Virus record (IMG/VR): IMGVR_UViG_3300028591_000070
Coordinates: 256,001-320,000 of that record
Source: a virus
Taxonomy: Duplodnaviria; Caudoviricetes
Strand: one strand, 5' to 3'
DNA length: 64,000 nucleotides
The first letter of the stretch is position 1, and each line of letters starts with the position of its first letter. The position numbers and the translations under genes were made by a program. Positions 24,038-45,515 of this stretch are shown piece after piece. The notes beneath the pieces were generated by a model. That model was not told where the DNA came from and did not search any database. It saw only the letters and a program-made list of their open reading frames with translations.

Positions 24038-24079
24038 TTGAAAATTTATTAATCTTGGTGGTATATTCTATATACGAGG
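24038..24079 (+). promoter_or_regulatory. class I promoter plus SD
   Basis: TTGAAA-18-TATATT-CTATATACGAGG. Confidence 0.7.
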
Positions 24080-24085
24080 TAGAAT

Positions 24086-25006
24086 ATGGCTAAAGAAAAA
24101 AGATTTAATAAACTTTATCCACCAATTCCAATATTTCCTGAAGAATATGCTCCTAGGGGTTTTGATCTTAATAATGAAGTTTTACCTTCCCTTGCAGAAG
24201 AGATGCTTTGGAATTGTGCTTCATATTATTTGCATGAATCTTATTGGAAGCGTCTTATAGAATTAAATAACTTCTGGCAGTGTCTTAAGCCAGAACTTAC
24301 TAAAAATCAACGACAACTCTCATTTCCAGCTGATTTTGAAACTTTGCTTGCTGAAATGAAAGATATTAAAACTGCTGAGTCTGAAGCTAAAAAGCAGTGG
24401 CAGAAAAATAATAAAATTGAGTATGCAAAACAAAAATCTGAAAACGAAAAATTCCGTGATGAACATAATTTCTGTCTTATTGATGGCAAAAAGGTGAAAT
24501 GTCCTTATCAAATAGAAGGACCTGGACTTATTATGTCACACCCAGGTGATCCTAAGTTTGGTGCTTGGAAATATCGTGTAAAGCCAGAAGATGTTACATT
24601 AAATATTGTTGGTTATGAAACTCCAAAAGACTGGAAGGGCAAGGTTGTTTCATCTAACACATCTCAGTGGGTCTTCAAATATAAGATGGACTGTGGCCGC
24701 AAAGGTATGTCTTGCTATACTCAGCTTGCTAAAAAAGCTAATGTTGATGCTAAGAGTGATATTGCTCAGGGAAATACTTCTAAGAAGTTTGATAAAACAA
24801 TGAAAGCTATTAAGAAGTATAAAAAACTTGAAAAACATATTGAAGATGGTCTTAAGTCTTCAGATTTGAAAACACAGCAAACTGCTTTAGTTACTTGGTT
24901 GATTTCTCAGACTGGTATTCGTGTCGGAAATGAAAAAAATCTTAATATTTCTGCTGATACTGTTGGAGCCACAACTCTCAAGGTTAAAGACATCATCTTG
25001 AATTAA
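24086..25006 (+). CDS. DNA topoisomerase IB, eukaryote/thaumarchaeal-type, N-terminal subunit (cap + first catalytic Arg)
   Basis: FCLIDG..YQIEGPGL..PKFGAWK.RVKPEDVTLN, KKFDK, GIRVGNEK, ADTVGATTLKV, collinear with human TOP1 IEPPGL..PKMG..PEDIIIN, LRAGNEK, ADTVGCCSLRV. Confidence 0.9.
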   Translation: MAKEKRFNKLYPPIPIFPEEYAPRGFDLNNEVLPSLAEEMLWNCASYYLHESYWKRLIELNNFWQCLKPELTKNQRQLSFPADFETLLAEMKDIKTAESEAKKQWQKNNKIEYAKQKSENEKFRDEHNFCLIDGKKVKCPYQIEGPGLIMSHPGDPKFGAWKYRVKPEDVTLNIVGYETPKDWKGKVVSSNTSQWVFKYKMDCGRKGMSCYTQLAKKANVDAKSDIAQGNTSKKFDKTMKAIKKYKKLEKHIEDGLKSSDLKTQQTALVTWLISQTGIRVGNEKNLNISADTVGATTLKVKDIILN

Positions 25007-25038
25007 GCTTTACAAAAAAGTATATTCTATATAAGAGG
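24998..25038 (+). promoter_or_regulatory. class I promoter plus SD between the two Topo IB halves
   Basis: TTGAAT (last codons of N-half)-17-TATATT-CTATATAAGAGG. Confidence 0.8.
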
Positions 25039-25043
25039 TAGAT

Positions 25044-25835
25044 ATGAAAACTATTACATTAAACTTTGTAGGTAAGAGTTCAGTTCCATTTAACCGTACT
25101 ATTGAAGTTTCTGATGAACTTTATGAAGTAATTAAACGAAGCCAGGAAAATAAAAAACCAACTGATGAAATCTTTGATATGGTTGACTCTGGTGATGTAG
25201 GAAACTTTTTGAAGGAAGTTGATAAAAGTTTCTCACCTAAAGTTTTGCGTACAGCTCGTTGTAATAGTGTTCTTGTTGAAAATCTTAAAAAGCAGAAGGT
25301 TGATAAAAACTCGACAGAAACCCAGAAGCTTGAGGCAATTTATAATGCAAATTATGCTATTGCTAAAGAGCTTAATCACCAGAAAAATATCGGCAAAAAT
25401 CAGTCAAACAATGAGGAAAAAGCAAATACAAATCTTCAGAATGCTAAAGATAAATTAAAGACTCTTAAAAAAGAGTCTAAGGCAAAACTTGCTGATATTG
25501 ATAATCAGGAAAAAAGCTTTGAAGAAAAATATGCAAAAATGCCTCAGATGCTCGAAGCTAAAAAGGCCGCATTGAAAATTGCTCGTGAAAAAATTGCAGA
25601 ACGTATTAAAAAGCAAGAAGCAACTGTTTCAAAGAACGAATTGAAAGCTAAGAAAACTTCTGAAACTGCTGATATTGCTCTTGGTACATCCCTTGGAAAT
25701 TATGCTGACCCACGTATTATCTATTCTTGGTGTAAAGATGTAGACCTTCCTATTGGAAAAGTTTATAATAAAAACTTACAGGAAAAATTTGAATGGGCAA
25801 AAGATACTCCTGCAGATTATTGGAGAAAAATATAG
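25044..25835 (+). CDS. DNA topoisomerase IB, C-terminal subunit (catalytic K, R, H, linker, Tyr)
   Basis: FVGKSS, SPKVLRT, ELNHQK, coiled-coil linker, ALGTSLGNYADPRI..WC....PIGKVYNK..QEKFEWA. Confidence 0.92.
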   Translation: MKTITLNFVGKSSVPFNRTIEVSDELYEVIKRSQENKKPTDEIFDMVDSGDVGNFLKEVDKSFSPKVLRTARCNSVLVENLKKQKVDKNSTETQKLEAIYNANYAIAKELNHQKNIGKNQSNNEEKANTNLQNAKDKLKTLKKESKAKLADIDNQEKSFEEKYAKMPQMLEAKKAALKIAREKIAERIKKQEATVSKNELKAKKTSETADIALGTSLGNYADPRIIYSWCKDVDLPIGKVYNKNLQEKFEWAKDTPADYWRKI

Positions 25836-28624: not shown

Positions 28625-29428
28625 ATGACAAAAACATTGGGTGATCGTATGAAAGAATATGAAAATGTCACAGATGCATCCCTTTATCATAGGATGCCAA
28701 TAATTTTAAGAATCGATGGAAGAGCATTCCATACCCTCACTTCCTTTATGGAAAAGCCTTATGATAATAATTTTATCAATCTCATGAATAATACAATGAT
28801 TGAGGTTTTTAATTCTTTTCCAGATGCAACTCTTGGATATGTACAGTCTGATGAAATCAGCATTCTTATGTGTCCATATGCTACTTATGAAACTGAGCCT
28901 GTTTTTGGTGCTCGTATTCAGAAAATCAGTTCAGTAGCCGCTTCTATTGCCACTCAAGCATTCATTAAAAATCTTTACAAGATGACTCAGTCTGATGAAA
29001 CTAAAGAATGGGCAGAAAAATGTCTTAATGGAAATATTACTTTTGACTGTAGATGCTTTAATCTTCCAAAAGAAGAAGTAATAAATTATTTTAGATTTAG
29101 ACAGCAAGATTGTACAAGAAACTCAATTTTGAATGCAGGACATTTTTATATTGGAAAGAAAAAATGCCATGGATTTAAGACTCCAGATATTATTGAAGCC
29201 TTAAAAGAAAAAAGCATTGACTATTGGACTACTTGGCCAAATTATGTTCATTATGGACGCTCATGTTATAGAGGAGAAGATGGCCATACAAAACTCTGGA
29301 CTCTTGTTTATGGAGCTAAAGATGTCGCCCTCGCTGTAGATAAGATGGTAAACTTCAATTATGAAAATCGCTCAGAATATATTGAAATGTTAGAGAGGTG
29401 TGTCAATGATACTGAATCCAGTAGGTGA
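28625..29428 (+). CDS. tRNA(His) guanylyltransferase Thg1-like protein
   Basis: LGDRMKEYE, RIDGRAFH, YVQSDEIS, FDCR, RQQDCTRNS. Confidence 0.95.
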   Translation: MTKTLGDRMKEYENVTDASLYHRMPIILRIDGRAFHTLTSFMEKPYDNNFINLMNNTMIEVFNSFPDATLGYVQSDEISILMCPYATYETEPVFGARIQKISSVAASIATQAFIKNLYKMTQSDETKEWAEKCLNGNITFDCRCFNLPKEEVINYFRFRQQDCTRNSILNAGHFYIGKKKCHGFKTPDIIEALKEKSIDYWTTWPNYVHYGRSCYRGEDGHTKLWTLVYGAKDVALAVDKMVNFNYENRSEYIEMLERCVNDTESSR

Positions 29429-42084: not shown

Positions 42085-42972
42085 TTAATCTCCTAAATCA
42101 ACTCCAGCTAAAATGTTACCAGTGAATTTTGCACTAGTACCACCTCTACCTAAAGTCATTCCAGAATCTTCAAGTTCGCTAAAATCAAGCATTCCCATAT
42201 CAGGCATACCAGAAGTTAATGACTCTTGAATGTTACTCATATTTCCAGACTCACGAATAGTTTGTCCTCTATCGAAGTTCATTGATGGTACGTTATTAGC
42301 TGCAAGTGAAACTCCATTTGCATCTAACTGACTCAACATACCAAACTCGCCGAATGGATTTGCTGCTTCATTGATTCTTTCATTCTGACCATACATAGCC
42401 TTAAGCTTACCAAAGTTGAGTTTGTTATTAACATAATTCTCTTCAAGAGATTTAATAACTGCTTGGTCTGTAGATTCCTGAACAGGAGCTGGGCCAGGAG
42501 CAATAGCTGACTGTGGTTCAGTTGGCTGTGATTGGCTACCTAAAATAGAAGACTGAGGTCCTTGTGTCAAATCTGGACCAGCAAGAATTCTTGCTCTCTT
42601 TTCTTCTTTTGTTTCAGGATGAGTATCTTTATAAGGCATGTTATTTACAAGATCTTTTAACTGACTTAATGAACTCTGTCCATTATTATCAACATATGCC
42701 TCGATCTTGTGCTTTGTACTTACAAGTTCTGTTTCAGCAATCTGTGTAAGTTCAGCGATAATATTTGTAAAGTGAGAAGGAATGATTTCATTTACCTTTC
42801 CACCAATAGCTGTACATTCTACCTGAGCATCATCCAAAATGTCAGTTACATCCAATACAGCGTTACCTGCTGCCTCAATAGCGGCTGCAGCTTTATTTAC
42901 TGCAGCTACAGCACTATCAAGGAGAGTGTAAAGTCTATCAATATTTCCTGCTGCTTCTTTTAAATTTTCCAT
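42085..42972 (-). CDS. candidate prohead core/scaffold protein
   Basis: downstream of protease; repeated LKEA, VQES, INEA, IRES, IQES. Confidence 0.6.
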   Translation of the reverse strand: MENLKEAAGNIDRLYTLLDSAVAAVNKAAAAIEAAGNAVLDVTDILDDAQVECTAIGGKVNEIIPSHFTNIIAELTQIAETELVSTKHKIEAYVDNNGQSSLSQLKDLVNNMPYKDTHPETKEEKRARILAGPDLTQGPQSSILGSQSQPTEPQSAIAPGPAPVQESTDQAVIKSLEENYVNNKLNFGKLKAMYGQNERINEAANPFGEFGMLSQLDANGVSLAANNVPSMNFDRGQTIRESGNMSNIQESLTSGMPDMGMLDFSELEDSGMTLGRGGTSAKFTGNILAGVDLGD

Positions 42973-42998
42973 ATCTTTATCTCCTCTCCTTAATCCTA

Positions 42999-45515
42999 TT
43001 AGTACAATCCTTGAGCGTGAAGGTTATTTACAAATCTGTTTCCAGCTTCTTTTTCAGTTACTTTTTCACCTTCAAAGTCATTTCTTCCAACAGCTTCGTA
43101 ATAATCTTGACGAGCAGATTCATTCATGAATGTTCCAGTAATTGGAGCTGCATCATCAAATCCAGGAATAATCTGATTTCTGTGTCTCAAGAATGCAGAT
43201 GTCGCTTCTTTAAGGTTTCTTGCACCATGGATTTGCTTTTCAAATGGTTCGATGTTCTTACCATATTTAGCATGCTGCTGTTCCCAATATTCATTTACTT
43301 CAACATTTTCTCTTACAATATTAATGCGGTTTTCAGCAGTTGGCATAAGATGCTTTGTAGTATCATACATGTCTGAAACCTGCTCTTTATATTGGTCAAA
43401 GCTTTCTTTCAAAGCATTATATTTCTTTGTCTGTTCATTGAAGTTATTCTTGAGAGTTTCAACAGAAGTAGTTGCTGTTTTGATGCTCTCTTTAAGAGTA
43501 GTATTTTCAGCATTTAGTTCTGCAATTCTCTTAACATTTCTATCTGTTGTTTTCTTAGCTTCTTCCATGATAGTAACAGCTTCTCTAAGTTTTGTCTCTA
43601 ATAAGCCATTATCTTTTTCAAGACGTTCATTTGTTTCAGAAAGTTTAGCAATAGTATCTTCACTTGTTGTCTTAGACTCTTTAAGCATATCTTTGAGAGC
43701 AGCAATTTCTGATTCTTTAGACTCAATTGTTTCATTTACTTTTTCAAGTTCATCACCAAAATTATCTAATGACTCTTTAAGAGTTTTGTTCTGCTCTTCC
43801 AAATCTTTGATATACTCTTCAGATTCAGTAATCTTTTCATTTGCAGATTTCTTGATATTATCTTTTCTCTGCATTAAAACTTTATTTTCTTCAGAAAGAG
43901 TATCATAAGATTCTTTCAATTCTTCATATTTAGCCTTAAAGTCTTCACCTTCAGCACTCTCTTTAATAGAAGCTCTAACTTCTGCAAGACGATCTTCAAG
44001 AGCTTTATTAGCTTCTTTTAAGAGTTCAACTTCTTCAGAAGATTTGTCAGACTCTTTGAGTGAAGCTACAAGATCTTTGTTGTAGTTTTTAATCTTTGCA
44101 TCAGCTGCTTCTCTTGCTTCAGAAAGCTGTTTCTTAAGATCTTCAATTTCTTCATTTAATTTACCATTTCTGATAGCTGCTTCTTCAACAAGCTCTTTAT
44201 AATCAATAACTTGTTCTTTAAGAAGTAATGCTGCTTCTAAGTTCTTTTCAGAAGCTTCGCGGAATTCCTTTGTAGACATGTCATAGTCTTTCTGGATTTC
44301 AACTGCTGATTCAACCATCTTTTCAAGGCGCTGTTTTTCAGCAATAATCTGTGCTTCTACTTTTTCTTTAAGGTCTGTGCAGTTTCCATCTTCGAAACAA
44401 TCTAGGATGTCTGTACATTCATTTAATCTATCAATTGGGTTTACGCCTTCTGATGATTCTGCCAAGAAATTGTTTACATAATTTCTAAAGATTTTTTCTT
44501 CTGCTTTTGTAAGCTTTTTAGACTCATGAACAGGCTGAGCTACAGCTGTCTGAGCTTGTGTATTTGTTGCGTCTGCTGTCATATTTTCCTCATTATTTGT
44601 ATTGTTTTGGATTATTTTGCTCTGAGCATTAGCTGGAGCACTCTTGATAATAACTGGATTTCCATTATCTACAGGGCCTTTCATACCTGCTGTAGCTTCT
44701 GTAATCTGATTTGAAGTATCTATTTGTGTATTTTCATTGATAGGACCAACACCTTTATAGTTGATAACAGCTGGCTGGCTGATATCCTTCATAAAGTTTG
44801 TAGGAGCTACACTATGATTATCTCTAGCATAAGTACCATAAGTTCCCTGAGATGGATTAAGTACTAAGTCTGCTAAACGTTCAATTTGGAAGGTATTTGG
44901 GTCAACGATTCTTGTAATTTGATTTACATCGCCAAAACCACTAGAAGATGTACCTACACGTCCATGATGATTTAAGATCTCTTGAGCAAGATGTCCGTAA
45001 GGTCCAACAAATGAGGCATAACCAAAAACAGTTCCTTGTTCATCAAGGTCCATATCATGCCATACTACAGCCTGGTCTCTAAATAAACCAGGGTCATCAT
45101 CTTTAACAGGATGGTCGGCTAATCCACATAAACCACACCAAGCTTCTCTCTGATTATCTCTTACATTTTCAAATAAGGCTTTTGGATAGATACGACCATT
45201 TAAGTTTTTAACGTCGTAGTGAGCTACTGGAATGCGCCATACTTCAAATGAGTCATTATTACCATTCTTAGTAAGTGATTCAAGTACCTTATTTAATAAG
45301 AGAATAGTCTGTGAATTGTCTTGATTATCTGTAGATGTGAGAGCTTCTTTTAAGGTCTGAGCAGCTTTAATAACGTCCATGTTAGAAACAACACACTCAT
45401 TGAGTTTATTTGGTTTTTCTACGCCATGAATTTTAAAAGCATTTTCATGTAAACGAGAAGCTTTAGCCTGGAAATCATTCTGTTTAAATGACCAGCTTTC
45501 TACTAATCTTTGCAT
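42999..45515 (-). CDS. prohead core protease (T4 gp21-like) fused to long coiled-coil scaffold
   Basis: NLNGRIYP, LADHP (His), GTSSSGFG (Ser), DLVLNPS; about 450 aa coiled coil rich in LKES/LKEA. Confidence 0.88.
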   Translation of the reverse strand: MQRLVESWSFKQNDFQAKASRLHENAFKIHGVEKPNKLNECVVSNMDVIKAAQTLKEALTSTDNQDNSQTILLLNKVLESLTKNGNNDSFEVWRIPVAHYDVKNLNGRIYPKALFENVRDNQREAWCGLCGLADHPVKDDDPGLFRDQAVVWHDMDLDEQGTVFGYASFVGPYGHLAQEILNHHGRVGTSSSGFGDVNQITRIVDPNTFQIERLADLVLNPSQGTYGTYARDNHSVAPTNFMKDISQPAVINYKGVGPINENTQIDTSNQITEATAGMKGPVDNGNPVIIKSAPANAQSKIIQNNTNNEENMTADATNTQAQTAVAQPVHESKKLTKAEEKIFRNYVNNFLAESSEGVNPIDRLNECTDILDCFEDGNCTDLKEKVEAQIIAEKQRLEKMVESAVEIQKDYDMSTKEFREASEKNLEAALLLKEQVIDYKELVEEAAIRNGKLNEEIEDLKKQLSEAREAADAKIKNYNKDLVASLKESDKSSEEVELLKEANKALEDRLAEVRASIKESAEGEDFKAKYEELKESYDTLSEENKVLMQRKDNIKKSANEKITESEEYIKDLEEQNKTLKESLDNFGDELEKVNETIESKESEIAALKDMLKESKTTSEDTIAKLSETNERLEKDNGLLETKLREAVTIMEEAKKTTDRNVKRIAELNAENTTLKESIKTATTSVETLKNNFNEQTKKYNALKESFDQYKEQVSDMYDTTKHLMPTAENRINIVRENVEVNEYWEQQHAKYGKNIEPFEKQIHGARNLKEATSAFLRHRNQIIPGFDDAAPITGTFMNESARQDYYEAVGRNDFEGEKVTEKEAGNRFVNNLHAQGLY

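Follow-up and report, generated by a model that had tools for sequence, protein, structure and literature searches.

As a drug target, type IB DNA topoisomerase (Topo IB) has been studied intensively, and to our knowledge a natural two-chain form is known only from kinetoplastids, where the cut lies in the linker. The locus described here, from a ~386-kb phage, raises the question of whether two adjacent genes, each holding part of a long-form (eukaryote/archaeal) Topo IB, supply the two subunits of a single enzyme. Judging from the sequences, they very probably do so, as a predicted non-covalent heterodimer. A natural cut within the catalytic domain would imply that one active site can be assembled from two chains. 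At such loci annotators will find two partial genes, which they may label pseudogenes.

Genomic setting

The window, by which we mean the whole 64,000-nt stretch of DNA that was analysed (C1:256001-320000), belongs to a virus record of 385,934 bp with a 144-nt terminal overlap. We regard the record as a phage because it is a virus record and its major capsid gene is T4 gp23-like; the terminase profile PF03237 had no match in this phage (G000) or in G001-G004. The probable source, which is the best-matching sequencing run, is a sheep gut metagenome. The host is probably a bacterium, as suggested by the presence of tmRNA, a RecA-type recombinase and sigma70-like promoters with Shine-Dalgarno (SD) sequences.

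The genes around the split Topo IB include recA, a metallophosphoesterase, nrdD/nrdG and Thg1, the last being a Thg1-like tRNA-His guanylyltransferase at 28625-29428 of the window (PF04446, E 2e-33). The minus strand of C1:152769-184155 carries 46 tRNA genes and the tmRNA. Immediately ahead of the window lies a two-gene type IIA topoisomerase (C1:246386-249624, minus strand), of which the A subunit was recognized by PF00521 (E 3e-72) and the B subunit by eye. Since the phage also encodes this enzyme, the split Topo IB need not be essential here. PF00521 and PF01131 were both absent from all four related phages tested. In another relative (L058) a topoisomerase IIA B-like gene precedes the split Topo IB by 1.1 kb, and a phage-like contig (L002:1442-6299) encodes a fused long Topo IB right after gyrB-like and gyrA-like genes.

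Domains and catalytic residues of the two genes

The preliminary description of this locus, made from the sequence alone, had proposed a long-form Topo IB split within its catalytic core into two genes, and Pfam searches and alignment with human Top1 agree with it. The features concerned are as follows; residues were assigned by alignment, and human numbering is that of PDB 1A31 (chain position + 174).

24086..25006, + strand: N-half gene (ORF1), 306 aa, stop TAA; cap (PF02919), hinge and first part of the catalytic domain
24539..24541, + strand: His152, replacing human R364 (a camptothecin contact); co-varies with Ser12 of the C-half
24920..24922, + strand: Arg279, equivalent to human R488; sole pentad residue on the N-half, invariant in 41 relatives
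25044..25835, + strand: C-half gene (ORF2), 263 aa, stop TAG; remaining catalytic domain, linker and C-terminal domain
25074..25079, + strand: Lys11, equivalent to human K532 (catalytic, invariant), and Ser12, replacing human D533
25248..25250, + strand: Arg69, equivalent to human R590, invariant
25377..25379, + strand: His112, equivalent to human H632, invariant
25395..25664, + strand: K/E-rich linker, C-half residues ~118-207, limits approximate (composition and alignment with the human linker)
25701..25703, + strand: Tyr220, equivalent to human Y723, the nucleophile, invariant

The cap profile PF02919 (Topoisom_I_N) matches ORF1 residues 16-201 with an E-value of 6.7e-20, which passes the cut-off, and the C-terminal domain profile PF14370 matches ORF2 residues 195-259 (E 1.7e-22). 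The catalytic profile PF01028 is divided, with positions 2-81 on ORF1 and 86-227 on ORF2, and is whole only over both genes. Relative to human Top1, the last residue of ORF1 falls at about L514 and the first of ORF2 at about V525, such that the loop 515-524 alone is absent. The catalytic pentad is divided one plus four, with the first arginine (R279) on ORF1 and the lysine, second arginine, histidine and tyrosine on ORF2, in line with the earlier placement of R279 on the one gene and of the catalytic Lys, Arg and His, the linker and a eukaryote-like C-terminus on the other. The linker is a putative coiled coil, to which its composition and its alignment with the human linker point. Neither half has docking residues added at the break, and Pfam detected no intein domain at the facing ends, which abut as in fused relatives.

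The affinity with long forms had been proposed on the grounds that poxviral and bacterial Topo IB are short forms lacking the long cap and the linker. The family profiles support this, as they recover the long forms of human and Caldiarchaeum with E-values of 1e-37 to 1e-60 and match the short forms marginally at best (poxvirus, 5e-4 to 1e-2; Deinococcus, 0.7-2.6). Taken together, the two genes have every sequence feature of a long-form Topo IB.

Conservation of the split

A decaying gene or an assembly error, with neither half functional, would be conceivable in a phage whose type IIA topoisomerase could cover the function. The contig of the probable source run, though, covers the stretch with zero differences, and in an independent bovine study one contig includes both genes, with 92 substitutions and 0 indels; in a close strain from a third study, 502 nt replace the 13 nt at 25007-25019. 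The continuous ORF that the preliminary description had named as grounds for rejecting the split is seen in none of these assemblies.

Searches for relatives gave the same picture. Protein search yielded about 40 stand-alone N-halves (~300 aa, 37-97% identity), a number that profile search extended to about 50, and about 36 stand-alone C-halves (~263 aa, 36-93% identity); protein-only halves among these may include contig-edge truncations, and those checked at the DNA level have genuine stops or starts. In all of them the N-half ends and the C-half starts at the same two strands. One N-half cluster has 376 members, and full-length halves are kept by hundreds of cluster members. The five catalytic residues are invariant among relatives, and comparison with close relatives gives a dN/dS of 0.12-0.24 (N-half) and 0.035-0.20 (C-half). 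A complete relative described below (G001) retains both halves, with no match to Topo IIA-A or Topo IA anywhere in its genome. Since independent assemblies show the same split, and since both halves are conserved with dN/dS of at most 0.24, the split is attributable neither to assembly error nor to decay, a reading that we consider extremely improbable; the earlier view of an evolved split stands.

A scan of IMG/VR with the single ORF1 protein gave no match (an alignment-based scan did find relatives), neither half matched any of 50,697 GenBank phage records, and PHROG and NCBIfam hold no family for them, bar one marginal PHROG match. Two long-form proteins outside the phage branch (P0270 and P0285) end at the same strand; they are either split forms or contig-edge truncations.

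Promoters and the gap between the halves

A 37-nt gap with a change of frame, and within it a promoter with SD whose -35 coincides with the final two sense codons of ORF1, had been noted previously. Both are confirmed by the coordinates below and by motif counts.

24038..24067, + strand: predicted class I (sigma70-like) promoter of the N-half, -35 TTGAAA (24038-24043), 18 nt, -10 TATATT (24062-24067); consensus match
24076..24080, + strand: Shine-Dalgarno-like GAGGT of the N-half, from sequence
24998..25026, + strand: predicted promoter of the C-half, -35 TTGAAT (24998-25003), 17 nt, -10 TATATT (25021-25026)
25007..25043, + strand: 37-nt intergenic gap at the break; frame change, stops in both frames
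25033..25039, + strand: Shine-Dalgarno-like AAGAGGT of the C-half, from sequence; common to other promoter copies

The promoter/SD motif stands ahead of both genes and occurs 5 times in the window, against 0 in 100 shuffles. Genome-wide there are 21 copies, and TTGAA is found 17-18 nt upstream in 15/21 of them versus ~0.6% by chance. Among 13 loci with both halves, the strict -35/-10 pattern precedes the C-half in 12, and the remaining locus (L001) has a near match by eye. Where the gap is 37 nt the -35 is formed by the last codons of ORF1, and where it is 24 nt another hexamer farther up ORF1 gives the right spacing; this shift of the -35 within ORF1 argues that the promoter is under selection. 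RNA contigs (run X15) contain only small pieces of both genes and are uninformative on expression. An alternative genetic code was ruled out, as the stop of ORF1 is TAA, the frames differ and all three stops are used genome-wide.

The distance between the halves in the 13 two-half loci is 24, 37, 38, 56, 107, 114, 421, 526, 696, 889 or 941 nt. The gap site behaves as an insertion hotspot for cargo genes, and an RNA ligase, a small signal-peptide, a membrane-protein or a homing endonuclease gene is seen there. Individual gaps contain an RNA ligase gene (PF09414; L145:2433-3080), a 155-aa signal-peptide protein (L144:3942-4409), a 59-aa protein and a 221-aa membrane protein (L137:6934-7775), and a 421-nt stretch with an interrupted ORF (L151:3925-4345). 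In L146 and L148 the gap is a 107-114 nt remnant of the RNA ligase with SD and start codon, and the N-half is identical to that of the ligase-bearing strain.

In the complete relative G001 (300,878 bp) the N-half (42196-43098) and the C-half (291042-291833), single copy each, are 51 kb apart on the circle, with the promoter motif ahead of each. In two relatives a half adjoins the major capsid gene, namely the C-half in G001 (L004:3903-5726) and the N-half in L140:3668-5497.

These arrangements bear on whether the halves are joined into one chain by ribosomal bypassing, frameshifting, an intron, RNA trans-splicing or a split intein. A topoisomerase gene whose gap is bypassed is known from T4, namely gene 60 (bioRxiv 10.1101/2022.08.31.505936), and the RNA ligase gene in the gap of some strains (L145) could be read in the same sense. 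Distances ranging from 24 nt to 51 kb, often with whole genes inside, rule out bypassing, frameshifting and cis-splicing. Moreover, no matched take-off and landing codons are present, the gap has stops in both frames, neither RNA structure (z = +0.98) nor an Rfam match was found, and the C-half has its own predicted promoter, SD and ATG. Intein residues are absent at ends that abut exactly as in fused relatives, and the RNA ligase is missing or deleted in strains with an identical N-half. Any joining of the halves is thus very improbable, which leaves the two-subunit reading in place.

Phylogeny of split and fused forms

The phylogeny of joined halves that had been proposed was reconstructed for long forms, without a short-form outgroup or a mixture model, from 80 joined sequences and 512 columns under LG+G4. 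Many rows are labelled by tree position, not by source name, and the fused rows are only partly verified as phage. All 52 phage-type rows form one branch (100/99), which joins the archaeal-type rows (99/97) and is separate from giant-virus and eukaryotic rows; as there is no short-form outgroup, the tree does not give the root or any donor. The enzyme of the window falls among 11 clustered rows, G001 included, that make up an all-split branch (100/99).

Fused long Topo IB is encoded by many huge-phage contigs, and most members of the phage clade are fused. Since the long form is a property of the whole, mostly fused, huge-phage clade, the split is a derived state within it. The capsid proteins of G001-G004, from phages with split and fused forms alike, are 48-68% identical to that of the phage of the window. 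A single clade of split forms is rejected (AU p 1.3e-54), and the six split pairs need 4 state changes in 200/200 bootstrap trees, counts that are blind to fission versus re-fusion versus recombination. A tree of N-halves requires 6 changes for the 8 DNA-verified split rows and 18 for the full set of 36, 13 of the 18 being forced by the starred branches.

Origin of the split

In one of these relatives (L080) the gap contains a gene for a 291-aa homing endonuclease (phrog_655, E 1e-43; NUMOD3). In L160 a copy with 87% identity stands before the C-half, which is in turn 86% identical to the fused enzyme of L011. In both, the -35 for the C-half lies within the last codons of the endonuclease. An endonuclease at the break is seen in this one split lineage only, and there is none in the 37-nt gap of the window. 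A 38% homolog of the L080 endonuclease is encoded elsewhere in the phage of the window (C1:156269-157135, minus strand), before an RtcB-like gene (identified by eye) and after an apparent duplicated stub of that gene's N-terminus; owing to this location, and with no 3' promoter, it is no evidence on the cause of the split in the window.

A mechanism of the following kind may be envisaged. The loop of the catalytic domain would tolerate being broken. Insertion there of a free-standing homing endonuclease, or of other cargo with a promoter and SD at its 3' end, would rescue the downstream half. The cargo would later be lost or swapped, and the halves would drift apart. The earlier reading of an evolved split is refined accordingly by the tree and the L080/L160 lineage: at one and the same loop the gene was split, or the split undone, on several occasions, and a homing endonuclease may be a cause. 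On balance we lean towards a fuller version, in which huge phages of gut and anaerobic digester carry a long-Topo-IB branch beside the archaeal enzymes, and in which cuts or re-fusions of the loop have been numerous (no fewer than 4-6 changes if only DNA-verified halves are counted, 13-18 if all protein-only halves are real), the cuts being driven by endonucleases with their own promoter and giving an active two-gene enzyme without docking sequence. Since fused, endonuclease-split, adjacent and unlinked states occur in one phage family, gene fission can be traced stepwise.

A predicted heterodimer

The two-chain structure prediction that had been suggested gave a score of 0.70, compared with 0.01 for the best control; the mark for this score is reached by 58/80 solved pairs and 2/110 mismatched pairs. 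Contacts are at least 99% the same between runs, and the partner pLDDT is at least 85. The modelled interface has ~210 contacts, between residues 222-306 of the N-half and residues 2-75 plus the Tyr region of the C-half. Halves of split genes tend to pass such a comparison by likeness to the solved human enzyme, so that the model speaks for fit, not for binding, and the interface may have been carried over from human Top1.

A hint at pairing that is independent of the model comes from two residues on different chains. In human Top1, R364 and D533 contact each other and camptothecin. This pair is R/D in 271/286 enzymes, and H/S occurs in the subclade of the window and in one distant fused protein, that is, in two events; the joint change hints that the halves pair. 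Because these camptothecin contacts are H/S here, resistance to the drug, not sensitivity, is expected of the split enzyme. The archaeal long Topo IB is camptothecin-resistant as well (PMC4824112). The residue before the catalytic Tyr (25698-25700 of the window) is Asn in this subclade, as is human N722; most other split relatives have Ala or Ser there, and the change goes together with R364H/D533S.

In the proposed mechanism, transcription of each gene would start at the class I promoter in front of it, and the two proteins would be made separately. The last helices and strand of the N-half would pack on the first strands and helices of the C-half and rebuild the catalytic domain, the sole missing part being a surface beta-hairpin loop. 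Once clamped on DNA, the enzyme would cleave one strand through a 3'-phosphotyrosine at Tyr220 and, with no need for ATP, remove both positive and negative supercoils.

It could also be that both halves are functional with partly separate jobs, the N-half serving as a DNA clamp or the pair being resolvase- or recombinase-like rather than a relaxase. Consistent with this, several contigs (L062-L066, L082, L092 and L138-L140) have a lone half with no partner within 1.5-6 kb, and R364H/D533S marks the subclade. Nevertheless, G001, the only complete genome in which this can be tested, has one copy of each half, the N-half has retained R488 and the interface helices, features that are meaningful only as part of a joint active site, and fused and split forms interleave in one phage family with related capsid proteins. 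Separate jobs are therefore unlikely, and a heterodimeric Topo IB remains the reading that we prefer.

Relation to known enzymes

In domain order and in its full pentad the phage enzyme is like human TOP1 (PDB 1A31, 1K4T) and TOP1 of Caldiarchaeum subterraneum (PDB 6Z01; PMC4824112, PMC8748870). It differs from these cellular, single-chain enzymes in having two chains, in forming its own phage clade and in having H/S for R364/D533. The prokaryotic long form has been limited to Thaumarchaeota in the literature (PMC4824112), and so the phage branch bears on the origin of the archaeal and eukaryotic long enzyme. A phage long form is not listed in PMC4824112 or PMC2647321, nor is it described in the accessible part of PMC4889955. 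Our literature search, with subscription papers mostly outside its scope, found no report of a long or split Topo IB in phages.

There are precedents for the split, namely the linker-split Leishmania Topo IB and split phage enzymes. The Leishmania/Trypanosoma enzyme (PDB 2B9S; PMC2063514) is a natural heterodimeric long form encoded by two unlinked genes, to which the dimer predicted here is similar. In Leishmania all four residues of the tetrad (R314, K352, R410, H453) are on the large subunit, and the small one contributes only the Tyr (PMC2063514), so that the cut lies in the linker. The phage cut lies ~120 residues earlier, inside the catalytic domain, and chain A of 2B9S matches both phage halves; as had been stated before, the kinetoplastid enzyme is split elsewhere, and the phage enzyme is not a member of that type.

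The locus also resembles the genes-in-pieces of T4-like phages, where a replication enzyme is made as two polypeptides: topoisomerase II genes 39/60 of T4 (mobA), nrdA of Aeh1 (mobE) and gp43A/B of phage 25, the pieces of which reassemble (PMC2988022). There the free-standing homing endonucleases mobA and mobE split the genes for topoisomerase II and NrdA (PMC2988022). T4-like phages have promoters for downstream genes inside endonuclease genes (PMC2988022), as in the L080/L160 lineage. In contrast to those cases, the enzyme family is another one, no docking sequence was added, splitting or reversion was repeated at one loop, and the halves are up to 51 kb apart. The two halves offer a ready system for mixing, with which clamp opening, the R364-D533 contact and camptothecin resistance can be approached.

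With the short Topo IB of poxviruses and bacteria (PDB 1A41, 2H7F, 2F4Q) the phage enzyme shares the catalytic fold and chemistry, and it differs from them by its long cap and linker. NCLDV are credited with short forms only in the literature on the enzyme; fused long Topo IB is encoded on giant-virus contigs in our dataset (L013-L051, many named GVMAG), where it forms a branch of its own (100/100).
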